Shown piece after piece: positions 1,868-62,385 of a stretch of 64,000 nucleotides of DNA (positions are counted from its first letter, which is position 1; every line of letters starts with the position of its first letter). The position numbers and the translations under genes were made by a program. Where the stretch lies: contig NC_081370.1 of assembly GCF_030684315.1 (NCBI RefSeq), positions 49,494,728 to 49,558,727 on the forward strand, read 5' to 3'. The notes beneath the pieces were generated by a model. It was given only the letters and a program-made list of their open reading frames with translations. It was not told the DNA's origin and did no database searches. Source of the stretch: Stegostoma tigrinum. Its lineage: Eukaryota.

Positions 1868-2005
1868 TTTGAGGAAGGGTCACTGGACCTGAAATGTTAA
1901 CTCTGTTTTTTTCCTTCACAGATGCTGTTGACCTACTGAACTTTTCCAGCAACTTGGTTTTTGTTCCTGATTTACAGCATCCGCAGTTCTTTCGGATTTT
2001 ATTCT
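1868..2005 (+). mobile_element. Penelope-like element terminus (family B) with degenerate hammerhead core
   Basis: tgagga-agggtcactggacct-gaaa-tgttaactctg; homologous to 19816-19951. Confidence 0.65.
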
Positions 2006-2009
2006 TATC

Positions 2010-2950
2010 CTTGACAAGCAGCACAAAGACTCGCCACCACTTGACCCTCAGTAGCAGCTGTATGTATCGTACAAGATGCACTTGAGAAAATCACCAATAT
2101 TCCTTGGATAGTATTCTCCAAACTCACAACCACTACCACAAGGACAGAAGGTATGGGGTAACACTATCATCTTCAATTTCGCAATGTAAGAGGCTAAGAA
2201 TACTGCAGCGACTAACTCACCTCCCGACTTCCCAAAGCCAGCCCACCACCTACAAGGCACTACTCAGGAATGTAATGGAAAACTCCCCACTTGCCTGGAT
2301 AGGTGCAACAACATTCAAGAGTCATGACACCATCCAGGACAAAACAGCCTGCTTGATCGGTAACATATCCAACGGCATTCATTCCCTCCACCATTGCTGC
2401 TCAGTAGCACCAGTATTTACTACCAACAAGATGCACAGCAGAAATTCACCAAAGATCTTTAGACAGCAGCTTCCAAACTCATGAACTTGTCTATCTCGAA
2501 GGACAATGCCAAAAATTACATGGGAACACCACTACTTCAGGTTCCCCTTCAAGCCACTTATCATCCTGACATGGAAATACATCACCGTTCCTTTACTGTT
2601 ACTGGGTCAAAATCCTGGAAATCACCCCTCTTTTCCAGGGCATTGTGGATCAATCTATAGCACATGGACTACATCGGTTCAAAGCAGCAACTAGCCATTG
2701 CCTTCACAGGAGCATCATGGGATGGGCAGTAAATGCTGGCCAGCTAGCGATGTCTACGTCCCAGAAGTGAACAAAAAAACCCTTTGGTGTCATTGGGTGG
2801 AAATCCCAGAAACCCCCACCCTAGTAATGGAGGTACCTACATTAAATAAATAGTAGCACTTCAAGAAGGCAGCTCATTACCATCCTTTCAAGGCCAGTGA
2901 GGGATGGCTAATAAATACTGCTCTAGCCAGCAAAACCCATATCCCTTGAA
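2010..2950 (+). mobile_element. Second LINE family (CR1/L2 group), 3' part with a duplicated 3' tail
   Basis: ORF 2104-2484 YKALLRNVMENSPLAWIGA...DTIQDKTACLI; tail gggatgg(g)c..taaat(g)ctg at ~2720 and again at ~2900. Confidence 0.7.
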
Positions 2951-3272
2951 ACAATAATTACAACTACTTCCTTCCAGTGCTTACAACCTCCATTTCTATC
3001 TTTCACAAGGTAGCACTTTCTCCCTATTCTATCTCAGTTAATGCAATGAGTCATCAAAAGATTTTGTTCATTTGACTATCAGTTATTAATGTACAAGAGT
3101 GAGAGGCCTGCTAATAAATATTCACAACATTATCCAGTTCAATTTTTCTTACCCTTGATCAGATGAGTAACTTGGGCCTTTCTTCACAGATGTTATGTCT
3201 AAGTGTTCCCATAAACTACCAAATACATGCACATTAAAATTCACATTGTTGCTACTTATGGTTTTCTATTTA

Positions 3273-6200
3273 TGTTAGCCCATAGAGCATACTTCAGATA
3301 GTCAGGCTCTGTGGAGTCAAACATCTTGATATTTACTTACAAGGCTGTAGTATCACAGACTTACACACACAGTCTGGGTCCGTGCTTACTGATTTGCTGT
3401 ACATCGCACACATTCAACCTTTGACTACACCGATTCCCTTATACACTCAGACAGATTGAGAGAGACGGAAAGGGCAGTGAGCACCTTTAGTACCAGAATG
3501 TCACATATTATGATGTTATGTCAATATCCTATATGTACAGGCCTGTATGATCTGGATTAAATGCCATGGTACAACAAACCCCTTTTCCAATTAAAGAATG
3601 GAAAGGCTTTTTCACTAACTTGCGCAGATTGTGTATCAATATATTGTTTCAATCCATTTATATTGTGCTTTGGTGAAAGACAACATGGTCAGACTTGGTC
3701 ATTATATCACTATCACAACTTAATGGTACAGCTTCGCTCTACAGTGTCCTACCCATCATTGCAGGTATATGTGTATCATTCATTGTTATCTAGCTTGATT
3801 CTTCAGTATCTGAGTTGTCATTCTGCATGACAGGTTGTTGATGTGCCTTCTGGTTACATTGTCTATTTGCTGGACATGATCATTGCTTATTGGCATGTTG
3901 TACTATTTAGGCTGGGTACAGCAGATGATAAAGCAATGTGATCATGTGAAATTCACAAATGTTGTCCCAATTCAAGTTTAAATATCTGCATGCTCATTGA
4001 GCATTCTCTTGTGGTATTTTCTCTCTTCTTTCCAAAAATGTGTCACGTACATGTGATTGGGTAGTGAGGATGTGTGTATCCGTCTCCTAAGCAACAGAGT
4101 TGTTGATGAGGTAAATCAGCTACCTAGAGCAGTGGAATGTAGGTTTAAACAGCTCTCTGAAAATCTTGGCAAGTTTCTTGAATTTAATGATCATGGATTT
4201 TACTGAGTAAGCAGTGCATTTTGTGAGAACAGTCGACTGAGGGCAGTGAGAGGAAAAGTAATATGTTTTAACATCCCATTTTCTGCACGTTTCTGGAGAG
4301 TTCACTAGAGCACTGCAGACTGTCATTGGACACAATTTGTTGACGTACACCAAAGATATTGAAAAGGCAATCAATGCGTTAACAATCATTGGGCAAATTG
4401 TATCCTGTCACACAAATTGGAATTTGATGAAATTATCAATCAACAGCATGTAGCTCTATCCTTGGACAGAGAAAATATCAGTTACAATCTTACATCTTGG
4501 TTCAGAAGACTCATGTGGAATTGACATGTCTCCCATAATTTGATTAAGTAAGTAATCTCCTTAGTATGCTGTGAAAATGTATGGATTCATTCTTCACTCT
4601 CTTGGCTTTTCCCATGCCCAAGTTACCAACATGTATGTAGTTTAGCATTGATGTAAACCTTGCAGAATTTTGCCTTGTTTGTCTTTGAAGATTACATATG
4701 TGGAGAGTCCTAGTTAATCAATGAATGACCAGAATGAACCTACTAACTCAGGGATTTGCTAGATAGGCTCAAGTTCAATGATGATAATGATAATCTCTTT
4801 GCACTTTTCAAGTAGGTCATCATCTGACATAGCTTGTCGAATCTGTTCTGCTTGACAATGACCAAAACGTATGATATCATTGTTAACATTAACTTTCTTT
4901 TACATTCTACATCCTTGTGTCACATCCAAAATGAAATGATCAATTCCTTCACTTTGCCATTTGCAAGTTGACTTGATCTCAAGCTTCTGCATCCTGAAAT
5001 TAATGCAAACCTAACTCAAATATGAAAAATGTTATCAGGATCATTGTGGTTCTTGTTAGAAATACCAGAAAGTTTTATTATTCTTAGCACCTGTGGCCAA
5101 AATGAAAAGAAAGTTGACTGTTTTCTTGTCTTTGAACTGCTGATGCTCAGAGTAAAGAACATAGAACATAGAACATAAAACGTAGAACAATACAGTGCAG
5201 AACAGGTCCTTCGGCCCTCGTTGTTGTGCCAACCTATGAACTAGTCTAAGCCCCTCGCCCTACAGTATCCCATCATTATCCATATGCTTACCCAAGGACT
5301 GTTTAAATGCCTCTTATGTGGCTGAGTTAACTACATTGGCAGGCAGGGCGTCCCACGCCCTTACCACTCTCTGAGTAAAGAACCTGCCTCTGACATCTGT
5401 CTTAGATCTATCACCCCTCAATTTGTAGCTATGCCCCCTTGTACAAGCTGAAGTCATCATCCTCGGAAAAAGACTCCCACTGTCCACTCTATCTAATCCT
5501 CTGATCATCTTGTATGTCTCAATTAAATACCCTCTTAGCCTCCTTCCCTCCAATGAGAACAGACCCAAGTCCCTCAGCCTTTCTTCATAGGGCCTGCGCT
5601 CCAGACCAGGCAATGTCCAGGTAAATCTCCGCGGCACCTTTTCCAATGCTTTCACATTGATGGTTTTAAACAACTGAAGTTCTGACTGAATGTCAATGGA
5701 TTTCCAATCCATGGCTTCATCTGTGCCTTCCATCTTTTTGCTTTTTAAAATGCTAGCATAATAACCTATATTACAGTATAGTGTTTTTGTGTTTTCACTA
5801 CCCTATACGTACTTTTGTATTGTATGTTGCTGTCCTTGCAAAAATTGCAGGCATGTTGTGGCTTTCTCTTTTCTGTAGGTGGTATTTGTCGCAAATTAAA
5901 GGAGTGGGAATGTTGTATATGTCTTTATTTGAAGTTTTGCTTAAATGTGGAAATGAAAATGGCAAAACTGACTGATGTCTGGACACAGGAAACACTAGAA
6001 ATAAAAATTTCCATGTTTTTAAATTGTATTTTGTTTAGGCATGTTTTGAATCTGTCCTTTCAGAATAATTTAAGAGTCTCAAAATTCATAATCAGATCAA
6101 CAGCCTCTCCTGTTTTTTTTAAGACATGAAGTACTCACTGTGCTTCAGCCAAGATTTTAAGTTTGGTTATAGCACAGTGATTTTGGTTGTAGTTATAATT

Positions 6201-6649: not shown

Positions 6650-7050
6650 TGTACTGTATTGCCTGGGACCTCACAAACTGAAACACTTCACCAGTTGACA
6701 TCTGTAATTAGTGCAAGAAACACTTTGTAAACTGTTGCCAGTTTCAAGGTTTCCTTGTGAAAGCCATATGCAGTAATTTGCACCAGATCCATGTAAAGGA
6801 TTAAAAGCTGCATATGTATTTTTATGATTTACAAGCGTTGTTCAAACCCTCAGAAAAACCTTAACAGTGAAAATCAAAGACTGTCTCAAAACAAACTAAA
6901 ATACTTACTAGAGTTCTGCATTATCATGATGACAGGCTGATTGAGTCAAAATGTTTGCTGAGGAGATGTACAACCGATGGAACACAAATGTCTTTTGAAC
7001 ATTGGCAGATTTTAAACAGATGTAATGCAATCAAAGTTACAATATAAAAT

Positions 7051-7197
7051 ACAAATGCTGTCAGTGTGAAGTAACTGCCAGAATTGACTGCAATCAGTCC
7101 CCTGCACGGCTGAATCGTTAACTGTTTGGTTCACCGGTATTTTAAACTCTCCGTCACTGCCTGCTTCTCGCATACGTTGGATAATGCAAATGTATTA
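7051..7197. repeat. Source arm of a 147-bp inverted duplication (partner 7950-8096)
   Basis: Reverse complement matches 7950-8096 with about 3 mismatches. Confidence 0.95.
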
Positions 7198-7708
7198 GTA
7201 CTTCAGAGAGCATTTTTATGGACCTTAATGAGCAGTAGGCAATATTATCTAAGACTGTTGGTCCCTTCAGCCTGGTTCTTATAATAGTGAATCCTTTAGT
7301 CAAAATTGAATGAAAAGTCATTTATCTATTTCATACTAATAATATATACTAGGCACATTGTTAATAAATGCCCAAGACATGGCTTGGGGCTTGGCATGGC
7401 CTCGGTTGCATCTCATGAGGTAGCTGTGAGATGGCAAAAAGAACTGAGGTTGAATCCGGTAGTTCAAGGCAGCAATGGGTGATCCATTGGCATTTCCATT
7501 CCTGTCCTACAATCCCTCAGAAATGTGTTCTTTTCCAGTTTAACGTCTTTTTACGCAGTTCACAGATGAAAGGTCACAAACCTGAAACCTCAAGGCAGAT
7601 TTGCAAAGCAGATTCAGTAGCCAACGCCAAGATGAATTCTGGCTCCAGGCTCTGACACATGGCCACGTCACCCACATTTCTGAATGTAAACACCTTTATT
7701 GATCAGGA

Positions 7709-7919
7709 TAACAAAGTGTAGAGCTGGATGAACACAGCAGGTCAAGCAGCATCTTAGAAGCAGGAAAGCTGACGTTTCGGGCCTAGACCCTTCCTGAAGA
7801 AGGGTTTAGGCCCGAAACATCAGCTTTTCTGCTCCTAAGATACTGCTTGGCCTGCTGTGTTCATCCGGCTCTACTCCTTGTTTTCTTGGATTCTCCAGCA
7901 TCTACATTTCCTATTATCT
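7709..7919. mobile_element. Palindromic Penelope-like terminus (family A) with hammerhead core
   Basis: Inverted arms; core ctgaaga-agggtttaggccc-gaaa-catc at 7794-7821; TSD ctttattga(t/g)cagga at 7694-7708 and 7920-7934. Confidence 0.85.
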
Positions 7920-7949
7920 CTTTATTGAGCAGGAAGTTGGTTTGGTGAA

Positions 7950-8096
7950 TAATACATTTGCATTATCCAACGTATACGAGAAGCAGGCAGTGACGGAGAG
8001 TTTAAAATACCGGTGAACCAAACAGTTAACAATTCAGCCGTGCAGGGGGCTGATTGCAGTCAATTCTGGCAGTTACTTCACACTGACAGCATTTGT
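7950..8096. repeat. Inserted arm of the 147-bp inverted duplication
   Basis: Inverted copy of 7051-7197, flanked by direct repeat gtttggtgaat (7940-7950 and 8097-8107). Confidence 0.95.
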
Positions 8097-8167
8097 GTTT
8101 GGTGAATTTTGCTGCCTGCCTGATATCAGTAGCAAAGTCAGACTGCAGCCATAACATGGATATCACA

Positions 8168-15160: not shown

Positions 15161-15859
15161 TGTGAGCCTGTTACCTTTGGCTCAGCGTCAAGGCAGAAAA
15201 GGGCAATGAAGGGCTGGTGTGAGCATCCACGTACGCTCAGAGTGAGATACTGCTAAGACAGCAAGTGAGCAGCCAAGGAATGCAGCCTGGAGCAGTACAT
15301 GAGCTGGGTTTTTGTTTTGCCCCTGAATGTAAAGTGTTCTTACAACTGTATTGCAATGCTAGTTGCTGGTTCAGCCTGGGGTTGCAGCAATGAAGTGCAG
15401 AAGTGGCCTGTAAGTGGATTGGATCCAAGCCATGAGGGTTCTTAGGAGCTGGCACATGTCGGAGGCCAATATCAGTGTTCATCTTGTCTGTGTGTGTGGG
15501 GTCAGTGCCCATGAACGATGCCTTGAATTCTTCTCTGTACCTGATTTCTAACCTGGATGCTCTTTGGATCAAGTGACGAGCTGAAGTCAGCTTGTATCCA
15601 AGCTGATGTCCTTGTTCAGAATTCTTGGCATCCAGTTTGCTCACACTGGGTAGTTTGAGAGAAAGCTGCATATCAATAAGGTAAAATTTACAGTTAATAA
15701 GCTCGTTAACAAGCAATAAACCACTTTAATGGACAATTCACCATTGCTTTGCGAGAATCTCACCTTGATCTCTACAGCTTAGTTGAAATATGCAGTGTTT
15801 TGCCTGCCACATCAAGTTAGGACTCACTGAATTCATTGGCGAACAGACTAGATGAGGGT

Positions 15860-16069
15860 TAATGGGAACTGAAGATGCTGGAGAATCCAAGATAACAAAG
15901 TGTGAAGCTGGATGAACACAGCAGGCCAAGCAGCATCTCAGGAGCACAAATGCTGACGTTTCGGGCCTAGACTCTCTGCTGAAGGGTCTAGGCCCGAAAC
16001 GTCAGCTTTTGTGCTCCTGAGATGCTGCCTGGCCTGCTGTGTTCACCCAGCTACACACTTTGTTATCTT
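15860..16069. mobile_element. Palindromic Penelope-like terminus (family A)
   Basis: Inverted arms; core ctgctga-agggtctaggccc-gaaa-cgtc at 15976-16003; TSD agac(t/c)agat(g/a)agggt at 15845-15859 and 16070-16084. Confidence 0.85.
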
Positions 16070-16410
16070 AGACCAGATAAGGGTGGCAGGTTTTCTTCCC
16101 TAAAGGACATTAGTGAACATGATATGTTTTTAGAACAAAAAAAAATTGTTGGTTCTCCACCACTAATGCAATGTGACCCTCAGATAGGCTGTCAGTAATG
16201 AACTCAGAGTGTGTGCTAAACAGTAATGTTAAGTAGAAACAGGCTGGAAGCCTCCAAATAAATGCTAAGAGATTGAGCACTAAAATAGCAAGCTAAGAAT
16301 GAGTAAGGGACAATACATTGTACATAGATGCATGAGAAATATGTACGTCCATGCACATAAAGTGACCTGGTACAATCATGCAAGTCATAATTATCCCACC
16401 AGTCATAAGT

Positions 16411-18946: not shown

Positions 18947-19485
18947 CGTGATAATGGGAACTGCAGATGCTGGAGAATTCCAAGATAATAAAGTGTGAAG
19001 CTGGATGAACACAGCAGGCCCAGCAGCATCTCAGGAGCACAACAGCTGACATTTTGGGCCTACACCCTTCATCAGAGAGGGGGATGGGGAGAGGGAACTG
19101 GAATAAATAGGGAGAGAGGGGGAGGCGGACCGAAGATGGAGAGTAAAGAAGACAAGAGAGTTGCAATGGGAGAGAGATTCCCTGAGGTTGGTCCGGAGGG
19201 AGGAGGGTAACTTCTTCAGGTTAGGCATCCCTGGAAGAGGCTTCGCAGTGAGGTTAAAATAGTATCAGAGATAATGGGAACTGCAGATGCTGGAGAATTC
19301 CAAGATAATAAAATGTGAGGCTGGATGAACACAGCAGGCCAAGCAGCATCTCAGGAGCACAAAAGCTGACGTTTCGGGCCTAGACCCTTCATCAGAGAGG
19401 GGTCAAGGCCCGAAACGTCAGCTTTTGTGCTCCTGGGATGCTGCTGGGCCTGCTGTGTTCATCCAGCCTCACATTTTATTATTAT
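18947..19485 (-). mobile_element. Penelope-like insertion: two tandem termini plus an inverted arm
   Basis: Terminal unit at ~18948 and ~19268; minus-strand hammerhead cores at 19048-19075 (mutated) and 19368-19395 (intact); inverted arm ~19400-19480; perfect TSD agtagattgcta at 18935-18946 and 19486-19497. Confidence 0.9.
19368..19395 (-). ncRNA. Minimal hammerhead ribozyme core
   Basis: Reverse complement is identical to 58489-58516. Confidence 0.7.
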
Positions 19486-19815
19486 AGTAGATTGCTAACA
19501 TGTTTTAATCTCATTTACTTACATGGATAATTGAACATGTCTGTCATACCTTAATCGTAAATAATGATTATACATTACACGTCTGGAAAATATAAACCTG
19601 GAAAAAGCCACCACAAATGAATATGTGGACACCAGGAAAAGATTCTCCATACGAAATGATCGAATGTTTGTGTCTTAATAATTATTTGTTAAACAACTTC
19701 AGAAACAGATACTTTGCAATCAGGAAAACAAAACATTTCAAGAGAATTGGCAAGGGTTTTTTTGCCATAGCTCATTGAATAGTGAAACAGTAACATAATG
19801 TCACTAAATTAGGAA

Positions 19816-19951
19816 GTTCTGAGGAAGGGTCACTTGACCTGAAACATTAACTCTGTTTCCTCCTCCAAAGATGCTGCCAGACTAGCTGAGTTTTTCCAGC
19901 AACTTTGTTTGTGTTCTTGATTTACAGCATCCACAGTTCTTTCAGTTTATT
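19816..19951 (+). mobile_element. Minimal Penelope-like terminus (family B) starting at the hammerhead
   Basis: gtt-ctgagga-agggtcacttgacct-gaaa-catt-aac; perfect TSD tcactaaattaggaa at 19801-19815 and 19952-19966. Confidence 0.85.
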
Positions 19952-25990: not shown

Positions 25991-26237
25991 AAATTTTGTG
26001 AAACGTTATACTCGATCTAGTATGTTGTCTAGTCGGCTCCCAACATACTGCTCTGGAGAACCAACCTAACACAAATTTCAGAAATGCATCCTCTACAGTT
26101 CACCCAGTCTATATACAGATTAAAGTCATTGTGTGGGATAATTATGGCCATGCTGATCTCATTTTATGATTAATATCATTCCCCACACTATACCTGCTGT
26201 CTAGTGGCCTATAAAAAGAAACTCCAACCAGTGTCTG

Positions 26238-26608
26238 GGGGAGAGGGGGAGGCGGACCAAAGATGGAGAGAAAAGAAGATAGGTGGAGAGGAGAGTATAG
26301 GTGGGGAGGTAGGGAGGGGATAGGTCAGTCCAGGGAAGATGGACAGGTCTTTCCTGGACTGACCTATCCCCTCCCTACCTCCCCACCTATACTCTCCTCT
26401 CCACCTATCTTCTTTTCTCTCCATCTTCGGTCCGCCTCCCCTCTCTCCCTATTTATTCCAGAACCCTCACCCCATCCCCCTCTCTGATGAAGGGTCTAGA
26501 CCCGAAATGTCAGCTTTTATGCTCCTGAGATGCTGCTGGGCCTGCTGTGTTCATCCAGCCTCACATTTTATTATCTTGGATTCTCCAACATCTGCAGTTC
26601 CCATTATC
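26238..26608 (+). mobile_element. Penelope-like 3' end with inverted 5' segment and hammerhead
   Basis: 26238-26347 inverts the following sequence; core ctgatga-agggtctagaccc-gaaa-tgtc at 26484-26511; TSD actccaacca(g/a)tgtctg at 26221-26237 and 26609-26625. Confidence 0.9.
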
Positions 26609-28236
26609 ACTCCAACCAATGTCTGTTGTCCTTTGCTGTTTCTTAGGTTTACAAATCAAATTCCACACTTTATTCTGATCTGATATCTTACTGATTTCAT
26701 CCCTCAATATCAGCACAACTCTGCCTCCTATTATTTCTCATCTGTTTTTCCCAAGGGTCAGATATCGTTGAATATTCAGTTCCTCGCTCTGGCCACCAGC
26801 CAACCACATTATGAGCGCTGCATGCATTCAGGTTCCATGCTCTTAGCTTTGACTTTTTGACATCATTCCACTCTTGAAGAATACTTCACATACATGCATA
26901 TGTTTCTCCTGTCTTCTAGTGTCTCTGGCATCTTTTTTAACTTCCTGCTACCAACAACTTTACTTCCTTTTAATTTGGGGTACCCCTCATGTACCCATCC
27001 CCCTGATAAGCAAGTTCAAACCTGTCCCAACAGCTCTAGCAAACATAGACACTGATATTCAGAACTGTTAGCAACCAGCCAGCAATGTGTCATTCAATAG
27101 ATGTCTCACATTGCTGAGGTATTGCTGCTTGAGACCGTCAGTGGTCAGTTCCGCAACACTCCTGGTGGCAATGTAGCTCTCACTTCTGGAATGCATTCAG
27201 ATGGTGAAGTGGGTTTGTGTACAATAATCATATCTGCACACAGCCAGCCTCTGGTTACTCATGGTAGCTCAAAGACATGAAAAACAACAAAATACCTCAG
27301 GATGAATGCATTGATGCCAGCAGGCACTCACTTCATCTACTCTTACTCGAACCATACATTGATGGAGTAAAACCACTTGTTGTCGTTCCAGTCTTTATTT
27401 ACAAGGGGCTCAGAGAATCACTTAGGTCATGTCAATGGCTCCTCTTCTAATTCTTTTGCATGCATCAGACATGCAATGATTTCCATTGCAGACCTCTGGC
27501 TACTTTAGGTCTTTCTCCAGTGCCTCACCAGTGTAATATTTTGCCTACCCTTTGCCTATGAGATGAATGAGCAGCCTGGTTGATTTTCCAGTAAAGCACA
27601 GTGTCAGCACAACTGGGAATGCAAGAGCTCATTTTGATTCAAACACATGGACCACAGAACTCCTGAGATTTTGCAGGATACCATTTATTTAAATAATTGC
27701 TCAATTGCGTCCAGAGGAAATCGACTAAGGATGTATAAGTCAATGAGCGAGCCATCCGTACAACGTTGCTGAAGAATTTCTGCCACATCATAAAGGAACA
27801 GTAACATTTGTAAAGGCAGAGGAAATAAACTATGAGGACAAAGTAACAAGTAATATAAAAACAGACAGAAATAACTTCTTTAAATAGATAAAAAAAGAGA
27901 GTTGCTAAAGTGGCCATGAGAATGTTGAGAAAAAGACCGGATGAACAATTATGCGGGACTAGGCAGATGAGTTAAGTAATTACTTTGATCAGGTTTCACA
28001 ATAGAGGGCACAAATAGCATTCCAAAAATACGACAAAGTCAAAGGAGTAAGGGAGAGACCATAACAATCCCTCGAGCAAGAGGGCAGCAAATTAATGGAG
28101 CTAAAGCTGATACGTCTCCTGGACATGATCAGTTGTATTCTCTGACTTTAAAGTAAGTAGGAATAGATATAATCGATGTGCTGGTAATAATCTTGCAAGA
28201 ACCTTTACATGCTGACAAAATCCCAAGAGATCCAAA

Positions 28237-29170: not shown

Positions 29171-30652
29171 CAATAGACAATAGACATAGACAATAGGTGC
29201 TGGAGTAGGCCATTCGGCCCTTCAAGCCAGCATCACCATTCATTATGATCATGGCTGATCATCCATGATCGGTATCCTGTTCCTGCCTTATCCCCATAAC
29301 CCTTGATTCCACTATCTTTAAGAGCTCTATCTCTTTCTTGAAAGTATCCAGAAACTTGGCCTGCACTGCCTTCTGGGGCAGAGCATTCCATATATCCACC
29401 ACTCTCTGGGTGAAGAAGTTTTTCCTCAACTCTGTTCTAAATGGCCTACCCCTTATTTTTAAACTGTGTCCTCTGATTCTGGACTCACCCATCAGCGGAA
29501 ACATGCTTCCTGCCTCCAGAATGTCCAATTCCTTAATAATCTTATATGCCTCAATCAGATCCCCTCTCATCCTTCTAAACTCAAGTGTATACAAGCCCAG
29601 TCACTCCAATCTTTCAACATATGATAGTCCCGCCGTTCCGGGAATTGACCTCGTGAACGGGGGCGGCATGGTGGCTCAGTGGTTAGCACTGCAGCTCACA
29701 GCGCCAGGGACCCGGGTTCAATTCAGCCTCAGGCGACTGCCTGTGTGGAGTTTGTACATTCTCCCCATGCCTGAGTGGGTTTCCTCCGGGTGCTCCGGTT
29801 TCCTCCCACAGTCCAAAGATGTGCAGGTTAGGTGGATTGGCCATGCTAAATTGCCCACAGTGTTCAGGGGTGTGTGGGTTATAGGGGGATGGGTCTGGGT
29901 GGGATTCTTCAAGGGGCGGTGTGGACTTGTTGGGCCGAAGGGCCTGTTTCCACACTGTAGGGAATCTAATAATAAACCTACGCTGCACACCCTCAATAGC
30001 AAGAATGTCCTTCCTCAAATTTGCAGACCAAAACTGCACACAATACTCCAGGTGTGGTCTCACCAGGGCCCTGTACAGCTGCAGAAGGACCTCTTTGCTC
30101 CTATACTCAATTCCTCTTGTGATGAAGGCCAGCATGCTATTAGCTTTCTTCACTGCCTGCTGTACTTGCATGCTTGCTCTCATTGACTGATGTACAAGAA
30201 CACCTAGATCTCATTGTACTTCCCCTTTACCTAACTTGACTCCATTGAGATAGTAATCTGCCTTCCTGTTCTTGCCACCAAAGTGTATAACCACACATTT
30301 ATCCACATTAAACTGCATCTGCCATGCATCCGCCCACTCACCTAGCCTGTCCAAGTCACCCTGTATTCTCATAACTTCCTCCTCACATTTTGCACTGCCA
30401 CCCAACTTTATGTCATCAGCAAATTTGCTAATATTACTTTTATTGCCTTCGTCTATATCATTAATAGTTATCGTAAACAGCTGCGGACCCAGCACCGAAC
30501 CTTGTGGTACTCCACTGGTCACCGCCTGCCATTCCAAAAGGGATCCATTTATCACTACTCTTTGCTTCCTGTCAGCCAGCCAATTTTCAATCCAACTCAG
30601 TATTTTGCCCCCAATACCTTGTGCCCTAATTTTGTTCACCAATCTCCTACAT
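29171..30652 (-). mobile_element. Younger CR1 LINE (RT domain to 3' tail)
   Basis: ORFs 30211-30687 (TSGVPQGSVLGP..ISKFADD), 29683-30183 and 29259-29594; (caataga)n tail; possible TSD ggcaa. Confidence 0.95.
29659..29974 (+). mobile_element. Full-length HE1/V-SINE nested in CR1
   Basis: gggcggcatggtggctcagtggttagcact (A box), gggttcaattc (B box), central domain, aatctaataat tail; splits CR1 at gtgaac|ctacgc. Confidence 0.95.
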
Positions 30653-30944
30653 GGCAAAAAAAGGGGATTCTTAACACAACTATGCAAAGAACTACTCAGA
30701 CACCACCTGAAATAATGTGAACAGTTTTGGTCCTGTTATCAAAAGAAAGGTGTTTTGTCATTGAAGGCAGTCCTAAAACAGTTATGTTCATTGATTCTGG
30801 GTATGGAAGGATTTTCTGATGAAGAAAGGTTAGGTTGGTTGAGCTTTTACTCATCGGAGTTTAGAGGAATGAGAGGAGACCATATTGAAACTTGTAAGAT
30901 TCTCAGGGATCTTGACAAGTAGATGTGGAGGGCTGTTTCTCCTT

Positions 30945-32449: not shown

Positions 32450-32955
32450 ATCGATGGGGTAAGTTTATATTTTCAGATGCATTTTATTTTGTTCAAAAAG
32501 CACACAATTTATGGGCTGTCAGTCAATATGATGTTTTATAAATTCCTACTCCAAACCAAAACACAAACAGATTCTAAACAAGGCCTCACATCTAACATGC
32601 ATTGTCTAACCCAAAATGTTACCTCTTCTTTACACTGATAAAACCTTTAGCTCTCTCAGGACTGTGGCTTGAAAGGAATTCAGGGATTTACATTTGCGTA
32701 TTAATCAATTAAAGCCTTCTAATTGATTAAAGATTTAACAGCATCTTCGGTTTGTTTAGTACATCCTCATCAATGGTGACCCTTTGATCTTTTACTTATA
32801 AATTCTGAGCCTGACACTGCCTCTCGCACTAACGCCTGAAGAAGGATTGAGGCTCCGACAGCTTGCGTTTTCAAATAAATCTGCTGGACTAGAACCTGGT
32901 GTCGGGTGATTTCTGACTTTGGCTACCCCAGTACAATTCTGGGACCTCCACGTCA
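32450..32955 (+). mobile_element. Penelope-like 3' region (family C) with degenerate hammerhead
   Basis: ctgaaga-aggattgaggctcc-gaca-gctt at ~32836-32864, then aataaatctgctggactagaacctggtgtc; related to 61810-62385. Confidence 0.6.
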
Positions 32956-32992: not shown

Positions 32993-33240
32993 GTAAAACA
33001 ATGAACTGCTAGAAATTTGAAACAAAAACAGAAATTGCTGGCATAACTCAGCAGGTCTGGCAGCATCCGTGGAAAGAGAAAGCAGGATTAACATTTAAAG
33101 GTGAGTTCTGATGTAGAGTCGCCGGACTTGAAACATGAACTCTGCTTTCTCTCCACAGATGCCGCCAGGCCTGCCCAGTTTTGCCAGCAATTTCTCTTCT
33201 CGTTTCAGATTTCCAGCTTCTACAGTTCTTTATTTTATTC
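32993..33240. mobile_element. Palindromic Penelope-like terminus (family B)
   Basis: Arms aaattgctggc..aactcagcaggtctggcagcatc and gatgccgccaggcctgcccagttttgccagcaattt; gagtt-ctgatgt-agagtcgccggactt-gaaa-catg-aactc at ~33104-33142. Confidence 0.75.
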
Positions 33241-35129
33241 TCAAATTGATACTGGCCAAACTCAAAAAGGTTGACAACCTGATAACTGTGCAGATCTTAA
33301 CAATTTGTGTACATCTTTAAATGATAATGTTTGTAGTCTAACCTTCGTGTTTTTATTTATTTACTTTGTGAATTGTAATTTGTATTGCGATCATAGTAAA
33401 GATATATTTTGGAACAAGACTCCCTCTGGTCTCTGTGCATCGCAGACCAAATCCAATATAAATCACTTACAAATACATTAAGGAAATTTGCCAAGGGACA
33501 TATTTCCTTAATATAGCTTCCGCTAGGGTAACATATACAAGAAATATTTGATTAAATAATAGGATTCATGCTGAAAGAATTACCTAGACATAATAACATG
33601 GAAACACATCATTTAACTTCGCAGTTTTCTGTTGGTGTTTGGCTGCTTCATAAACAATACTCCTCATCCCACGTGCCCACCCCATTTACATTTATTCCCC
33701 AAACACTTGCTTAATGCGTTCCTGAGATTCATGCTTCAATCATGAACTCTGGTGATGTGTTAAGCAGATTCATACAGCAGAAGTTTTCCAACCTGGCACA
33801 TTAATTTTCTGTTCGAACCGACCATTTTGGAATCATGACCCCATATGCTAGGAGTAGCTGATTCAGAGGAATCCTTCAGGATCACTGTACAATTTTAGGG
33901 AAGGGGAATGGATGAGGAGGAGGCAGGGGGACAAAAATGGGGCAGCTTCAGCCATGTTTCCAATGAATCTTTAGCTGACGTAAAAATGACAAATTTGAAA
34001 TAGTTGCAGCAAATTTCTTCAGCACCAGCAGACTCTGTGGCATTGGTCTCTTGGCAAAAAAAACCCTGTAAAGGCAAGAGCAAAATCCGAAATTGCCAGA
34101 AAGACTAGTAGATCTGGCAGCATCTTTGGAGAGGAAGCAAAGTTAATATTTTGGGTGCAGTAACCCTTTTTCTGAGTTCTTGTCATTGTCCTTAACATCT
34201 TATCATTGACCCAGGTGTAAACACGTCTCCTTGGGCCCTGCTAAAATTCTACCTGTAGGCTTAACCAATAACAAGGGAGAGCGGGTCCCATGGGATCACA
34301 TGGGAAACATGGGAGAATGGTCAGTAGATCTGTCTTTCACCAGAATCACAGATGTGCAGTGTTGTTTGGAGAAACACTTTAGAACCCCAAACAGTGCGTT
34401 TTGCTATAGTGTTGTTGCCTCTGTTGTAGTTTTTTTCATATATTTTCAGATCAACCTGTTTGGAAATGCTATTGCACAGTTTTGGATCAGTTGGGGCTTG
34501 ATCCTATGCTTCCTGGGTTTGTGCACTTTAGAGAGAGAAGCCATTAGGACACACAGTGACCAAGTATGATGGGAAATCCTTTGACAGAAATCTCAATTCC
34601 AGATTAAAAGTACTAACCCAATATGCAATGTCGAGGAGATGGTGATGAGAAGGAGACAGGGACAATTCAAGAGAGGATTCAAGATGCATGGAGGTTTTTT
34701 GCCCAGTGCACTGATACCTCCCTGATGTACTATTGGATCTGACAGGTTGCAGAAGGTTATTCTAATTTCTAACAGCGAGAGGAAACTGTGGTGGAAATGG
34801 AACGGCTGTAATACGTTGCACAGGGGGTAACACCTGATAGTTATGGCCAAATGGTTAAGGTGAGGGATTTTAAAACTTCTTAAGGTCTCCCCTCATAGGT
34901 TCTAATCCAGCCAACTGCTTTTGTTTATGGCTGAACTCTGTTTACTTGACTGTGTGTAAATAAGTGTGTGTTTTTAAGGCTCCTATTGTGAGTGGTAATG
35001 TCCCTATTTCTGGGCTTGGAGCATGAGGTTCAAGTCTCACATGTTTGAAGACCCTGGATGGGAGGTTATTTAGGAAAATATCTACCCAGGAAGTCAGCAA
35101 CAGAAAGGAATTCCCACACTCGTGTTCAA

Positions 35130-37139: not shown

Positions 37140-37228
37140 TGACACAATTCCTTTACAGGATGTAATTCAGTTACATGGAGATGCAACACCAGTTACTATG
37201 CATGTGTTGGATTTATTCACAGTGCTTT
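37140..37228. repeat. Arm 1 of a perfect 89-bp inverted duplication
   Basis: Exact reverse complement of 38767-38855. Confidence 0.95.
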
Positions 37229-37886: not shown

Positions 37887-38445
37887 AGATAGTAGGAACT
37901 ACTGCTGCTGGAGGCCTTATGCTCGGTTCATGACAAATGACTGCACCTCCCAGTGTGAACCACTTCAACTCCCACTCAAACTCCTTGGATGACATGTCCA
38001 TCCTGGGCTGCCTCCAGTGCCACAACGATGCTACCCGAAGGTTGCAGAAACAGCACCTCATATTTCACTTGGGAAACCTGCAGCCAAATGGTATCAATGT
38101 GAACTTCACAAGTTCCAAAATCTCCCTGCCCTCGACCACATCCCAAAACCAGTCCAGCTCGTCCCCGCCAACTTGATCTGCCTGTCTTCCCTTGACTTAC
38201 AAGCCCTCATCCTAACTCACCACCATTACTGGCTCCATCCCTGCCTCCTCAGCCTAAATGTCTCCTCTCCACTTAACCACACCTTTATCCATCTTCCATT
38301 CGCCTCCTCCTCTCTCTCTATTTATTTCAGAATCCCCTTCCCCTCCCCCATTTCTGAAGAAGGGTACAGGCCGGAAACATCAACTTTCCTGCTCCTCTGG
38401 TGCTGCTTGGCCTGCTGTGTTCCTCCAACTCTACACCTTGTCACC
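37887..38445 (+). mobile_element. Penelope-like 3' fragment (GIY-YIG C-terminus) with short inverted tail
   Basis: ORF 37937-38176 HFNSHSNSLDDMSILGCLQCHNDATRRLQKQHLIFHLGNLQPNGINVNF; core ctgaaga...gaaa at 38354-38377; TSD tttcagatcag at 37876-37886 and 38450-38460. Confidence 0.9.
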
Positions 38446-38766: not shown

Positions 38767-38855
38767 AAAGCACTGTGAATAAATCCAACACATGCATAGT
38801 AACTGGTGTTGCATCTCCATGTAACTGAATTACATCCTGTAAAGGAATTGTGTCA
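38767..38855. repeat. Arm 2 of the perfect 89-bp inverted duplication
   Basis: Exact reverse complement of 37140-37228. Confidence 0.95.
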
Positions 38856-40199: not shown

Positions 40200-40690
40200 G
40201 GAAACAGGAGGCTGGAGGAACACAGCAAGCCAGGCAGCATCTGGAGGAAAGGAACAGCCAATGTTTCAGGTATTACCCTTCTTCAGGACTGGATGTGGGG
40301 GTAAGGGGAGCTGCAGATAAAGATGGCGGGGAGGTCGGGTAGCAGGATCATGGCGATCATTGGCAGTAGGTATGACCCGGCTGTTTGATGGGATAGATGA
40401 ATCCAGTTGGTGGCTGGAAGGGAGGGTCAGATGGTGGAATGGAACGGAAGATTTGGATCTGGAGAGGAAAACACGCTCTCTGAATATTTCAACATAATGG
40501 GGATAGATGGGAAGGTTATGTGAAATTGGAGAACTCAGTGTTGAATCCTCTGGGCTGTGGGGTGCCCAAGTGGAAGATAAGGCGTTGTTCTTCAAATTTG
40601 TAATCCGAGTCTCTGGAACACTGGAGGAGGCTGAGGATGGACATGATGGAGGTGGAGTGGGAGGGTGAGTTGAACTGGGCAGGTAGAACA
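40200..40690 (-). mobile_element. Penelope-like 3' fragment
   Basis: ggaggaacacagcaagccaggcagcatc; minus-strand core atgtttcaggtattacccttcttcag at 40261-40286; decayed GIY-YIG C-terminus ~40520-40680. Confidence 0.75.
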
Positions 40691-41271
40691 CAAATTTTCC
40701 ATCAAGGCTTAGCTTTTTGGTTGTTATCCCTTCCACTAGAATCTCTGACTTGTGCTTAAGTCCAGTGAGACTCAATGTACATACTGAAAATCTTCACAAT
40801 TCAAGCTCCTTTTACCATGCTATGTTTCCATCAGATTATGTTAAAAGTGTAGAGCGAAGTTCCTATTTGCAAGACTTTGCAAGGGAATCCAGGTGATTGT
40901 CCTTCCAACATTACTAACTGAACACAAAGTGCAGAATTGCTGACATGGAAAATATATCTTACAAAAGAAAGCCAATCGCACATTTCTGAAAGTGAAGTCT
41001 GGTAGTGGTTACAATATGTTGCTGTGCATCATTATTGTTACTATTTAGCAAATGCAAATCCCTGAAGCCAAGTGATAACCTCCTCATTTATTGAGTTTGA
41101 TTTGATTTATCTGTAGTAAACCAAGCCTGTAGTGGGGACGCTCCTTTGTAATGTACAGCATTTCCTGTATTTCTACACAGTGCAGAGAGGTTTATACTGA
41201 GGTCCCAGCAGCAAAGGTTGACTGCACAGAGGTTGTAGCCTGTCCCTAACATGTTTAGCAAGGACTACCTT

Positions 41272-48597: not shown

Positions 48598-48599
<2 letters not shown>

Positions 48600-56590: not shown

Positions 56591-56608
56591 AGCGATTAAC
56601 CCACAGTC

Positions 56609-56700: not shown

Positions 56701-57693
56701 GGAAAAAGTTACTGCAGCCCAAGGTGTCTTTGCTTAATCAAGAATAAAACAAGCATAAAGCTGCAGTTGTGTTATCTGAAGGACAAGTAGCACAAATTGT
56801 AGATAAAATAAACTTTTGGTACATTTTCAATTTCAAAGTGATTAGGCGTGCCTGGTCTAATAATAAACTATTACTTTACAATGGAACAGCGTACTTCTAA
56901 TGTCATGTATCAAGTGATCTGAAGTAAGATGGAGCATGAGATCTTTATACCCTTAGGGTACTGTGATGGCATCTTGAACATGTCTCTTAAGGGTATACTG
57001 ACTTTGAGATGTAGCACACAAACAATTTGATTAGTAACAAAGGTCTAAGACCATCTCTGATGTATTTTGCATACATGCTACACTTACCTATGTCACTTTG
57101 TATCAAGTAGCAGCACGTTGACTACACAATCTAAAAGCAGAATTCCGTTTGCCAGAGTGTTGCAACTATTGGAGGGAGCTGTGACTGGGCTCCGCTGATC
57201 CCAGGATTTGAGCCGACGTGGCTGCCATTTTAGAGCAGCATTTGGAAACATTGCTGAATGTTTCTCTCACGAAATGATAAGTTAAGTGCCTACCTGTCTC
57301 TCTGAACTGTTTAAATAAAAACAAGCACGCCTTTCCCCAAAATCCTGGTTTACTGCGATCTCTTGCTCATACTACCAGAGCAGATTAAATGATTGTTCAT
57401 CTATTCCTTTGTGCTATACAGTGATTTTTGCATATTCCCTTTCCTGTGATTACCCATAAAACAAGACTAACTATATGGCTTAACAGCAGATCATTGGTAT
57501 TGAATGGCTTTGAGGTGATCTGAGCGTTTGCAAAGTAAATGAAAGTTAATTTGTCTGCATCTATATGCTTGCTCCAGTGAAGGATAAACAGGAGAGATAA
57601 TGGGAACTGCAGATGCTGGAGAATTCCAAGATAATAAAATGTGAGGCTGGATGAACACAGCAGGCCAAGCAGCATCTCAGGAGCACAAAAGCT

Positions 57694-57721
57694 GATGTTT
57701 CGGGCTTAGACCCTTCATCAG
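57694..57721 (-). ncRNA. Minimal hammerhead ribozyme core (variant)
   Basis: Reverse complement reads CUGAUGA-A-GGGUCUAAGCCC-GAAA-CAUC. Confidence 0.6.
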
Positions 57722-58488
57722 AGAGGGGGATGGGGAGAGGGAACTGGAATAAATAGGGAGAGAGGGGGAGGCGGACCGAAGATGGAGAGTAAAGAAGATA
57801 GGTGGAGAGAGTATAGGTGGGGAGGTAGGGAGGGGATAGGTCAGTCCAGGGAAGACGGACAGGTCAAGGAGGTGGGATGAGGTTAGTAGGTAGCTGGGGG
57901 TGCGGCTTGGGGTGGGAGGAAGGGATGGGTGAGAGGAAGAACCGGTTAGGGAGGCAGAGACAGGTTGGACTGGTTTTGGGATGCAATGGGTGGGGGGGAA
58001 GAGCTGGGCTGGTTGTGTGGTGCAGTGGGGGGAGGGGACGAACTGGGCTGGTTTAGGGATGCTGTTGGGGAAGGGGAGATTTTGAAACTGGTGAAGTGTG
58101 GTATCAATGTGGACTTCACCAGTTTCAAAATCTCCCCTTCCCCAACTGCATCCCTAAACCAGCCCAGTTCGTCCCCTCCCCCCACTGCACCACACAACCA
58201 GCCCAGCTCTTCCCCCCCACCCACTGCATCCCAAAACCAGTCCAACATGTCTCTGGCTCCCTAACCGGTTCTTCCTCTCACCCATCCCTTCCTCCGACCC
58301 CAAGCCGCACCCCCAGCTACCTACTAACCTCATCCCACCTCCTTGACCTGTCCGTCTTCCCTGGACTGACCTATCCCCTCCCTACCTCCCCACCTATACT
58401 CTCTCCACCTATCTTCTTTACTCTCCATCTTCGGTCCGCCTCCCCCTCTCTCCCTATTTATTCCAGTTCCCTCTCCCCATCCCCCTCT

Positions 58489-58516
58489 CTGATGAAGGGT
58501 CTAGGCCCGAAACGTC
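58489..58516 (+). ncRNA. Minimal hammerhead ribozyme core
   Basis: CUGAUGA-A-GGGUCUAGGCCC-GAAA-CGUC; palindromic ACGU in place of stem III; GUC cleavage triplet. Confidence 0.7.
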
Positions 58517-60489
58517 AGCTTTTGTGCTCCTGAGATGCTGCTTGGCCTGCTGTGTTCATCCAGCCTCACATTTTACTATCGAGGATAAACAGGAAGTGAG
58601 AAAGGTTGCAGTGCCAGTGAATCAATGCATTCACGATAAATTGCCCAAAACATTACACAGCGTTACCCTGCAAAGAACCATTGCCATAGGACAAAAGCAG
58701 AAATACAGCCTCCAGACATGATTCTGGTCATTAGCTGCTTTACAATGAGTGCTGTGAATAGACAGAACTGTAGGCTGAACACTTAGTATTTGTTCCTGGT
58801 CAATTCAATGATTAAAAATGATCTTTTGCTGCCCTCTGTATGATCCAGGAGCAGTGCCACACTTTGCAAAGAAACTGACTTTGGGTTAACATTGCAAGGT
58901 CAATCCATAGCACAACACTCACATGCACGGTGCCCATGCCTATAGCTTTGGAACTGTATTATGGGCTTCATCATCTCTAATTATTTCTGTAGGCAATGAC
59001 TGGATTAAACAAAATGAGTGTTAAAATTAGCTAAGATAAAAGTCATTAGTGTGTGATTCCTGCTTTCTTAAAATGATCCAATACCTGCTAATGATAGCAG
59101 CTAACATCTCAACATGTTTTATGTTTGAATACAAGACATTGAGCTGATTAAAGCATTTGGCTGCATTGTGTATTTTAATCTTCTTTCAGAGTCATTTTGC
59201 AGTATCAAACACATTGAAACATTGGTTATTATCATACCGTGTATCACTTTCAATTGCACATTACTGTGATATCATTAGCATCAATGTGGGACAGCAATGA
59301 GCATTCTACATACTCCGGTAACTGAGAAACCAAATTGGTAAGAGGCTAATAGCACGAACATTACATTTGAATGATTTTTGATGTATATGTGATTCAAAGA
59401 TATGTTAATTTATTGCAAAGCTATTATTTTTGTGGATAAATTCCAAAGAGACATGCAAAACAAAAAGAACCAAGATTTTGTCCACACTTCAACTCACTGT
59501 GTAGCAAAGTAGTAAAAAGTAATGATCTCAGAACGTAAGACATGTGCAATCTCTGTGAAATATTGTCAGTGTGCACTGACATTTGTGCAAGTCAGAATAA
59601 TGGTCTCCAAAGACAGAAGCCCAAAGTCCTGACTAGATTATAAGCTATCCCTCATCCACTTCTGTGCTTTGTATTATTTGGTCAAGACATGCTCATTATG
59701 CCAATAATGTAAATGAGCTTGTGTAATACTTCTAACATTGCAAAAAAGTCAGGACGGCATCCGGTGCTCCAATCCATTAGTGTTGGGTGTCCCTCATTAT
59801 CCTTCATTTATTCTCATCACCCATTCCTCTAATTAATGAACATCTAGAATTTCTGATCAAAACAAATTTCATTCCAGTAAATTTTATGGCATCAATAACT
59901 ACCCCACATATAAGCCATTCCATAATTGCATTCATATAGATTATGTCATGTCCACACGGGGCCTGATTGCAAAATGGTCCACGAATTGCAAGTCTGTAAA
60001 GCTCCCTTAAAACCCTTTTAGATTTTCACATGTTTCTATTAAAAAACACAATTATCAGCAAGCCTTTAGCCTTAAACAAGGTCAAGGTAAGTTTTTGGAA
60101 CAACTACTGCTCTAAACTTGCTGAGTACAAAATTAATACAGTAATGAGCTAAACCATATATGCAAGCATTAAAATTAGGTGCAGATAAAAGATGAAGTGA
60201 GGCCAACTTATTATCAAGGCTGGCTTGCTACTTGACTGAAGACTGTTTTCCCAAAGCTAGAGGGTTGAAAGTCAGATTTCAGCATTTGCGATTGCTGCTT
60301 CCATTAAATATATAATTGGAGTATTTTCTCATGGACTGAGCTAAATAGATTGTGCAAGGACGTGACACCTTTATTTTGTTGTGAAGGCTTTGCAAGTTGT
60401 AAGCCTTGATAACCTGGCTCACTACCTTAGTCTTTTATTTAAGTTGACTTTCTCCATATTGCTACTGAGAACACACTGTCTCTCTGATG

Positions 60490-61280
60490 TCAATTTTTAG
60501 GATTCCCACTTGAATTTCTGTTAAAATTGCATGGCCAATTGGCCAATGGCCTAAGCAACGAAGCCTGAAATAAATTTTCCGCACGCAAGGCCTAATGGAA
60601 TGCAAGGATGGCAAGGTCACCACAGGTCAAAAGCAAACAAGACCAGCCTAGATCTGTATTTCATATAGAACTGAGGTGGTCAGCACTGTCAATGGGAGAG
60701 TTATTATGACCCAAAACTCATTAAGAAGTACTCAGCCAGAAACATAAGGCAAGCCAAGATTTTTGTGTATTTCTTGGTTTTGGCCAGAGACCTTGGCATC
60801 ATGGAGTAAACAATCTAGCAAAGGGGATGGGTACACCTAGGGTAAACTGGCCCAACCTCATTGGTCAGAGAACATTCCAGAAGGGCTCAGAAAGGGTGGA
60901 TAAGAAGGGACATCTGGCAACCATTCTCTCAGCGAAGACTCGGACAGTGAAGATTCCGTGTCAGACCCACCTTTGAAACTGGGAAAATGCTGAGTGCCCT
61001 CTCATTGGATCTCAGTGAATTGGTTCCAGCAACCCAATCGAGTTCACCAAAGAGGGTAATATTTGTGTTTTTCAGGCAGTTGGCCTAGTTTGGGGAAAGT
61101 TAACTTAAACTGTGCGAGCTTTGTTTTCTTTAACTTATAAGTTTTTCTAATAAAACTATGTTTGAGCAGTCCCTTGTTTGTCTCATGCAGTGAGAGCATC
61201 TGGGGAAACTTATGTTATGAGTAATAAACTGGTCGAAATGCCTGTACAGAATATTTGACAAGTAACAATTGTGTCTCACA
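60490..61280 (+). mobile_element. Possible solo LTR
   Basis: LTR-like length and composition, AATAAA at ~61149, possible tgtcaa...ttgaca ends; no TSD found. Confidence 0.3.
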
Positions 61281-61809
61281 ACCTAGCATATTCAGACCAG
61301 AACTTAAGGTGTTTCCTTTGTTATGTTTGATGAATCATTATTCCATGAACCAATTATGCTAGAATTTCCTGTGGTATCTTCCAGACTTCCAGTTCTTTGG
61401 GAAGCTTTGAATTCTCCCACTTTTCGAAAGACCTATGTGACATCCAAGTAAATTCTCATTATTTCTCTTCGTGATTAATGTTGAGATAATGCAACTAAAT
61501 GTTTGCTTTTTAACTTTAAATTAATCAACAAAATCAATCATGTGACATCTGGGAGCCACCTTTGTAAAAAAATCTATTTTACAAATCTTCAGAAAATAAA
61601 TAATATTGTACTATATGGCTGTTACAATTACTAAGGATGTTTAGTATTACTGTTGATGGAAAATCTAATCCAATCTAAAAAATAACATTTTTGGAGGGTG
61701 AGCTTATCAATTCATCAGAACTCAATCCTGACAATTAAATCCCTCATAAACACTGACAGAAGTTGGGTGAAGCTTATCCCAGAACTATTCTTACTCCTGG
61801 TGTAGAAGA

Positions 61810-62385
61810 GCATGTGTTAGACTGGGATGGACAAAGTTAGAAATTACACAACACCAGGTTATAGTCCAAAAGATTTATTCGAAATTGCAAGCTTTCGAAG
61901 TGCTGCTACTTCATCAGATGAATGGGAGGGTAGGGCACAAGCATATAATTTATAGGCAGAGAAATCATTGCAAGGTAATTCCAGGTAATTGAGAGTGTCA
62001 AAAGATAGTTCTGATGTTGTGAGTGGAGTGTCAACAGGCTGAATAGCAAGTGAAGGGATGTTCTAATATCTGATTATTCAAGACAGAGAGATAATTACAA
62101 ACAAAAATAAAATGGTGAGATAACAAGATGTAGAGCTGGATGAACACAGCAGGTGAAGCAGCATCTGAGGAGCAGGAAAGCTGACATTTCAGATCTAGGC
62201 CCTTGCTGAAAATTTCTGAAGAAGGGCCAAGACCCGAAAGGTCAGCTTTCCTGCTGTGTTCGCCCAGCTCTATACCTTGTTATCTCAGATTCTCCAGCAT
62301 CTGCAGTTCCTACTATCTCCAAAAATAAGGTGGTGCTAGAAACAAACCAAATGGCAAGCATGATAGGTTTCAGAGTTGCAGGACA
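61810..62385 (-). mobile_element. Penelope-like 3' region (family C) with hammerhead core
   Basis: cacaacaccaggttatagtcca; reverse complement of ~61889-61917 reads CUGAUGA-AGUAGCAGCACUUC-GAAA-GCUU. Confidence 0.7.
62118..62319. mobile_element. Palindromic Penelope-like terminus (family A) nested in the family C element
   Basis: Inverted arms; core ctgaaga-agggccaagaccc-gaaa-ggtc from 62216; TSD caaaaataa(aa/gg)tggtg at 62102-62117 and 62320-62335. Confidence 0.85.

Follow-up and report, generated by a model that had tools for sequence, protein, structure and literature searches.

Minimal hammerhead ribozymes at the predicted transcription start of Penelope-like elements in Stegostoma tigrinum, with a candidate footprint of cutting in vivo

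The window analysed here is a stretch of 64,000 nucleotides from Stegostoma tigrinum (NC_081370.1, positions 49,494,728 to 49,558,727 of the forward strand, assembly GCF_030684315.1). It holds 28 repeat ends that bear a minimal hammerhead ribozyme (min-HHR), 20 of A type, six of family B and two of C type, all found with profile hidden Markov models (HMMs) of core plus tail built from genomic copies. That the motifs are minimal hammerheads in Penelope-like elements (PLEs) is practically certain. A first-pass annotation made from the letters alone had already reported more than 15 such cores, and each of the eight copies it named lies at, or at most one base from, the place given there. What it overlooked is the position of the motif at the predicted transcription start of its carrier, and this position is the subject of the present work.

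Hammerhead-bearing repeat ends in the window

In unselected DNA, consisting of stretches at round coordinates plus the window, we obtained 196 profile HMM matches in 574 kb and, with a tail-anchored search, 375 matches in 1.174 Mb (367 of which could be placed). This amounts to one copy per 2.9-3.1 kb with decayed copies included, and the earlier estimate of one per 3-4 kb was thus right for all copies. The cores had been described as intact or decayed; both kinds are present but most are dead, a point that had been missed, and only two of the 28 in the window are fully intact (58489+ and 19395-). C3 is changed at 1869, A9 and position 17 at 33108, and GAAA at 32836, while the palindrome is lost at 26484. 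The 1.174 Mb contain 55 intact cores, 54 of them of A type, from which about 150,000 are extrapolated genome-wide. An exact family A core was counted 94,130 times across the 3.2 Gb of the genome, compared with the roughly 4,000 and 9,000 motifs counted in coelacanth and Xenopus (PMC4209133). Family A is young, its best 40 other matches being 98-99% identical.

A strict descriptor matched twice in the window and in none of 200 dinucleotide shuffles, and a relaxed one matched seven times, the shuffles averaging 0.005. Taken alone, the plain CUGANGA..GAAA spacing pattern (17 matches; shuffle mean 8.7, maximum 17) is weak. An Rfam scan of the window gave no hammerhead match at E<=5, and its microRNA-type matches, all below the gathering score, are the fold-back insertions.

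At least five subfamilies could be resolved (A1, A2, B, C and C2). Three families had been proposed, and although A, B and C were all found, the two C copies represent two subfamilies (C and C2) and family A is not single, comprising at least A1, A2 and a further type with its core at 40286. This further subfamily, D (40260-40793, minus strand), has a stem II of 4 bp, a stem I predicted at 5 bp and a remnant of the endonuclease. The flanks of the families had been called clearly different. This is true of C-type copies, which compare with A and B at shuffle level, but A and B are related, with 66-70% identity over 50 bases downstream against 49% in shuffles (95th percentile 58%).

The motifs have the core C3UGANGA9 and G12AAA with U16.1-H17, an extra base between positions 9 and 10.1, the pair G10.1-C11.1 and a stem II of at least 4 bp, with one internal mismatch in C2. 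All 14 core positions are identical among the A1, B, C and C2 consensuses, and the conservation of the core over its flanks, the check that the annotation had set, is thereby found; the A2 consensus has 13 of 14, its match set being biased by the query copy. Since stem II and GAAA of different families did not line up in a MAFFT alignment of 12 copies, pairs were counted by anchoring within each family, with 30 copies each, of which 7, 0, 7, 3 and 2 (C, A1, C2, A2 and B) were excluded because of indels or missing anchors. Between families the stem III pair 15.2-16.2 changes in a compensating way from C-G in A and B to G-C in C and C2, stem II pair 3 is G-C or A-U, and stem I pair 1 is U-A or C-G. 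The palindrome at 15.2-16.2, without a loop 3, is C-G in 30 of 30 A1 copies and G-C in 22 of 23 copies of both C and C2; A2 and B matches are mostly CpG-decayed there. In long copies stem I has 2 bp in A1 and A2, as had been read for family A, 4 bp in B and 5 bp in C2. For family C it has 4 bp by consensus, the pair counts including only three long copies.

The minimal type I architecture, the extra base after A9 and the palindromic 15.1-16.1 thus hold as first described. They match the metazoan PLE min-HHRs of PMC4209133, which likewise lack loop 3, have G10.1-C11.1 and a short helix I, fall into several consensus families and occur mostly singly or as close opposite-strand pairs. A 2-bp helix I like that of family A is also present in Drosophila virilis Penelope. 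The bare presence of the motif is ordinary.

The assignment to Penelope was borne out by remnants of reverse transcriptase (RT) and GIY-YIG endonuclease directly upstream in A, B and C-type copies. In family A a frame of 510 amino acids ends 228 bases before the core and shows a C-x4-C-x2-C linker together with RVT_1 and GIY-YIG matches that are weak (E 6e-5 to 0.015, under the Pfam cut-offs). The N-terminus of the open reading frame (ORF) was seen separately from these 3' 510 amino acids, and no full-length ORF was found among the genomic loci examined; a long frame after the A1 tail in locus L099 belongs to a neighbouring long interspersed nuclear element (LINE) and was rejected. Long B copies match the A protein at about 50% (locus L085), and long C copies keep decayed linker and GIY-YIG remnants. 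The CX2-5CxxC linker before the endonuclease is present in A and partial in the decayed B and C frames.

Furthermore, we found pseudo-long terminal repeats (pseudo-LTRs), inverted copies with tail-out fold-backs, and an optional tail; among 287 anchored copies there are two 3' end classes, at about +96..102 and +130..138, some 33 bases apart. Target-site duplications of 9-15 bp flank six of the nine window elements checked. Such duplications, tail-out fold-backs and 3' end classes have been published for PLEs (PMC11167929), and a C-x4-C-x2-C-type linker marks Neptune and Nematis PLEs (PMC8557442). The endonuclease-containing (EN+) PLEs of this type (Craig et al. 2021, PMC8557442) share with the elements described here the RT, the CX2-5CxxC linker, a C-terminal GIY-YIG, pseudo-LTRs, inverted 5'-truncated copies, an optional tail of 30-40 bp and a 3' hammerhead. 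Judged by element anatomy, which does not separate Neptune from Nematis, the carriers are at least five Neptune/Nematis-type Penelope subfamilies.

The elements of the window are collected in Table 1. Within the fold-back at 57591-58586 lie the 3' end of the ORF, two ends of the pseudo-LTR and another core, which is decayed (57721-57694, minus strand). The core of the family B stub (19819-19848) is decayed at 11.1 and in the palindrome. Near Penelope ends there are also inverted pairs with 97-100% identity (7047-7197 with 7950-8100 and 37140-37228 with 38767-38855), possibly local inversions or duplications made at insertion.

Table 1. Hammerhead cores, promoter motifs and insertions of Penelope-like elements in the window
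Feature	Position	Strand	Remarks
A1 minimal hammerhead, intact C3-C17	58489..58516	+	strict descriptor; predicted cut after 58516
TATA-like box, A1 pseudo-LTR	58455..58461	+	consensus of 18 long copies; first T 34 bases before C3
TCT-type start motif, A1	58484..58490	+	predicted +1 at 58485, also stem I 5' strand; fits YC+1TYTYY
Fold-back A1 insertion	57591..58586	.	arms 96.9% identical; 13-bp target-site duplication
A1 minimal hammerhead, intact	19368..19395	-	strict descriptor; copy begins at predicted start, about 19399
A1 mini-unit with internal deletion	18948..19482	-	12-bp target-site duplication
A1 core, palindrome decayed	26484..26511	+	inside fold-back insertion 26237-26615; 10-bp duplication
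A2-type tail-out palindrome joined at predicted start	7691..7924	.	core 7794+; 9-bp duplication
A1-type tail-out palindrome	15852..16085	.	forward arm begins 4 bases before decayed core 15976+
A2-type tail-out palindrome	62107..62325	.	core 62216+; 9-bp duplication
A2 core, decayed	38354..38381	+	upstream: TATA-like box, initiator (Inr), GIY-YIG remnant 37949-38125
Family B solo stub, predicted +1 to tail	19815..19951	+	15-bp duplication at 19801 and 19952
Family B core, C3 lost	1869..1898	+	
Family B core, decayed	33104..33137	+	begins at predicted +1, G before; forward arm of palindrome 32994-33241
Family C core, stem II decayed	61889..61917	-	TATAAA 37 bases before C3
Family C2 core, GAAA lost	32836..32864	+	TATAAA 39 bases before C3
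Subfamily D core	40260..40286	-	GIY-YIG remnant upstream, 40522-40677

A 5' edge, a promoter and an extra G at stem I

Short copies begin sharply 4 bases (A and B) or 7 bases (C) before CUGA, and in 25 of 30 family B loci the family sequence starts about 4 bases before it. In unselected DNA the 5' ends of A1 fall 28 times into -7..-1 and once into -40..-8 (144 copies; 65 are longer and 50 shorter), those of A2 37 and 11 times (121 copies) and those of B 28 and 7 times (83 copies), with p<1e-14 for each. Genome-wide, A1 copies start at -4 in 8,198 and at -5 in 2,870 cases, B copies at -4 in 2,763 cases, and C copies at -7 in 256 cases compared with 89 at -4. Since the edge lies at -7 in C and at -4 in A1, it moves with the promoter instead of keeping a constant distance from the core.

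In each subfamily the long copies contain a TATA or TATA-like box, the first T of which lies at -34 (A1), -35 (A2), -33 (B), -37 (C) or -39 (C2) from C3, and the edges follow 29-31 bases after the box. The published window for the first T is -32..-28 from the start, with the consensus TATAWR (PMC5580651); the boxes of B, C and C2 are TATAAA. The start motifs of C, C2 and A2 fit the Inr consensus BBCA+1BW fully and that of B with one mismatch, and A1 fits the TCT motif YC+1TYTYY. The young A1 therefore differs from its older relative A2, which starts on an Inr (38348-38354 in the window). Promoters of the TCT type are uncommon and are characteristic of ribosomal protein genes (PMC5580651). A promoter inside the pseudo-LTR is common to D. 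virilis Penelope (PMC2377424), Adineta Pen2a (PMC3846280) and the elements described here. The Pen2a pseudo-LTR has a putative TATA box and an Inr-like motif as well, whereas D. virilis Penelope has a TATA-less internal promoter and an intron 46 bases after the start.

Directly before the edge, the family's own C is often replaced by an extra G. Counted by eye in the first 100 matches listed per family, this is the case in 82 of 100 for A1, 52 of 100 for B and 75 of 100 for C, with 26% expected; without fold-back-like prefixes, 42 of 60 (A1) and 52 of 77 (C) among these matches remain. The 'gagtt' that had been taken as the flank of family B is not family sequence: the family's own upstream sequence ends in CAGTT and the G is the extra base, and at 19819 the letters before the G belong to the 15-bp target-site duplication. 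Copying of the cap as an extra G by RT has been described for L1 and for the RT of avian myeloblastosis virus (PMC4038843).

Taken together, the TATA or TATA-like box, the start motif, the sharp edge and the extra G point to a capped sense transcript that opens with the 5' strand of stem I. On this genomic evidence, transcription very probably starts at stem I, and the hammerhead likely forms the capped front of an RNA polymerase II (Pol II) transcript that is usually copied uncut. The mini-unit at 18948-19482 looks like a whole template of this kind. It consists of an inverted arm, the hammerhead at the start, a leader, the start codon at 19228 (167 bases after C3), a deletion junction, the 3' untranslated region with the next TATA-like box, a second, decayed hammerhead (19075-19048) 320 bases on, and a long tail; both of its cores are uncut.

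Several points weigh against this interpretation. The A box, TATTTA, misses TATAWR and is TATA-like only. The share of G is elevated at the A1 -5 start as well (41 of 100 of the first matches listed), and fold-back junctions or spread starts may account for some of the G signal. In addition, no clear 5' edge was found for C2, for which there are only eight short copies.

Fold-backs at the predicted cut site

In family A a second class of ends lies at the predicted cut. A1 copies starting exactly at position 1.1 gave 3,676 matches, compared with 967, 746 and 624 at -1, +1 and +2, and about 60 of the first 100 listed cut-site matches are fold-backs centred on the self-complementary tetramer that begins at 1.1. 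Perfect A1 fold-backs number 727 at this tetramer, whereas the three other self-complementary tetramers used as controls gave 53 (4 bases upstream), 148 (stem II) and 24 (tail). In family B a 6-base palindrome is centred on the cut, and cut and uncut templates are inseparable there by fold-back count. The fold-back peak and the cut-site starts in family A likely record occasional cutting in the germ line, and we hold cutting in vivo in this family to be moderately probable. The anole element Poseidon PAc differs from family A in this respect, as no in vivo ends at the cut were found for it (PMC11167929).

This footprint has to be weighed against a number of observations. The self-complementary tetramer at 1.1 could draw joins by itself, and many cut-site fold-backs are counted on both strands; the cut-site matches that are not fold-backs number about twice the neighbours and are in part explained by microhomology. 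In the unselected sample the footprint is weak, with 3 of 144 A1 ends at the cut. Family C has no cut-site peak (62 at the cut compared with 421 and 150 at the neighbours, where sequence variants dominate). RNA-seq of the anole element gave no reads ending at the cut, and its insertion did not depend on cutting (PMC11167929). The predicted fold of the A1 monomer has a stable stem II (0.86-0.96), but its 2-bp stem I has a pairing probability of 0.0 and the best fold hides the core, which is predicted to pair with the 3' strand. Stem I is likewise not predicted for the B monomer and reaches 0.42-0.48 in C. These predicted folds agree with published work in which such ribozymes are weak and depend on dimers or a protein (PMC4209133, PMC11167929).

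It is possible, though we consider it doubtful, that the start site is placed correctly but no cutting by the hammerhead ever takes place in vivo, so that the fold-back peak in A would reflect a joining or nicking preference at an A/T-flanked tetramer or a pause of the RT. The missing peak in family C and the short A1 stem I with its hidden core would agree with this, as would the low in vitro activity reported for min-HHRs (PMC4209133) and the cleavage of one of nine Xenopus dimers (bioRxiv 10.64898/2026.07.22.740005). Against this stand the control tetramers, which give 5-30 times fewer fold-backs, one of them, 4 bases upstream, having the same base make-up. An RT stop at stem II would be expected about 8 bases further upstream, and the core letters are kept across unrelated flanks.

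Template of the insertions and meaning

The observations are quite probably best explained if the min-HHRs in the pseudo-LTRs are the first 32-37 bases of a capped Pol II transcript that is mostly copied uncut and occasionally cut. Pol II would initiate at the 5' strand of stem I, so that the hammerhead heads the capped element RNA, and this RNA would mostly serve uncut as the template. The Penelope RT would begin 95-135 bases downstream at one of two internal sites, as it does in vitro for the anole element, and run off the capped end, copying the cap as G and leaving stubs; longer copies would arise when it initiates on a read-through transcript, within the downstream pseudo-LTR. If both strands of the break are extended and the two cDNAs (complementary DNAs) are joined head to head, tail-out palindromes would result, and two cDNAs that have run off a cut end could anneal at the 1.1 tetramer without trimming. 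For cutting, two copies would pair through the ACGU or AGCU palindrome, probably with the assistance of a protein. The cut would remove a capped leader of 32-37 nucleotides about 140 bases before the start codon, and cutting may thus act as a concentration-dependent decapping switch that limits translation, a role that we propose tentatively.

Much of this resembles PAc of Anolis (Frangieh et al. 2024, PMC11167929), in which two RT start sites define the tail, both target strands are extended, unprocessed RNA is the main template and the hammerhead is protein-assisted. The PAc ORF starts inside the hammerhead, in contrast to the A1 start codon described above. For head-to-head palindromes the Adineta paper prefers an antisense, self-primed template (PMC3846280), whereas the extra G points to a capped sense template for the elements of this genome.

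A different origin of the short copies would be a separate SINE-like (short interspersed nuclear element-like) or retrozyme-like element that begins at the hammerhead and spreads from its own masters. Solo stubs with their own target-site duplications (19815-19951) and internally deleted tandem mini-units (window 18948-19482, L147 and L311) would suit such an element. The stubs are, however, letter for letter the end of an autonomous subfamily, in five subfamilies, their upstream flanks are mutually unrelated, a stub has no TATA box upstream, and the extra G suggests that the templates were capped RNAs transcribed from copies in which the box is retained, all of which makes this origin very unlikely.

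Short PLE-derived units with one type I hammerhead each are known as non-LTR retrozymes, also from a cartilaginous fish (bioRxiv 10.64898/2026.07.22.740005). Tandem units are only a small minority in this genome, and most copies have run-off or truncated ends. In the window, tandem units with intact hammerheads were not found, as the second core of the sole same-strand pair (19395, 19075) is decayed. Internally deleted A1 mini-units with differing junctions (320, 301 and about 440 bases) occur at 18948-19482 and, beyond the window, in L147:5076-6190, L311:7100-8150 and L043; L147 has three tandem mini-units and an inverted copy and is retrozyme-like. Possibly, very short tandem units are also present at G000:C1:149364335-149364689, with four tail matches within 350 bases, and at G000:C1:2722793-2722882, with two intact cores 59 bases apart on the same strand.

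Tandem mini-arrays with one hammerhead per unit would also agree with a cleaved and re-ligated circular RNA as template, the rolling-circle model of Cervera and de la Pena proposed in PMC4209133, the edge then being a template-switch hot spot at stem I. We give this little credence, since a circle has no cap, yet the extra G stands at the edge in three families, and the edge tracks the TATA distance. A 3' splice site at the edge can scarcely be the explanation: in D. virilis Penelope the intron runs right up to helix I (PMC4209133) and family B has a pyrimidine run and an AG upstream, but this AG is contained in the B copies, which do not begin behind it, the edges of A1 and C lack an AG, and the shared upstream exon expected from spliced RNA is absent.

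Apart from the PLEs, the window contains a dispersed repeat of 150-320 bases in seven copies (8678, 10675, 16411, 23462, 28231, 29660 and 51917) and CA/GT microsatellites of 30-55 units (32375, 45664 and 48524). The sole Pfam match among 20 window frames is an RT fragment of an unrelated LINE (30211-30735, minus strand; RVT_1, E 5e-16).

The motif and its host class were already known; the start-site placement and the candidate in vivo footprint appear to be new. The passages of PMC4209133 that bear on these motifs describe neither a placement at a start site nor copies ending at cap or cut. Our literature search, with subscription journals, supplements and Repbase/Dfam outside its scope, found no report that places a PLE hammerhead at a start site, describes a G copied from the cap in PLE insertions or shows insertions that end at the cut.

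The function of the hammerhead in EN+ PLEs has been called unclear (PMC8557442), in vivo cut ends were not found for the sole element studied by biochemistry (PMC11167929), and an antisense template had been proposed for palindromic insertions (PMC3846280). If the explanation preferred here, a capped transcript headed by the hammerhead, is true, the start site is fixed to the base in three families, the template of the insertions is capped sense RNA, and the ribozyme is a leader remover and not a cutter of tandem precursors; the exact RNA ends to look for can also be named. Going further, the hammerhead may serve as a switch by which a capped mRNA decaps itself at its very front, and the genome would be a fossil library of both states, comparable to 5' RACE (rapid amplification of cDNA ends), with thousands of insertions from capped, uncut RNA and hundreds to thousands from cut RNA. 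This proposal, which we regard as evenly poised, would make the family A fold-backs the first in vivo trace of PLE hammerhead cleavage.

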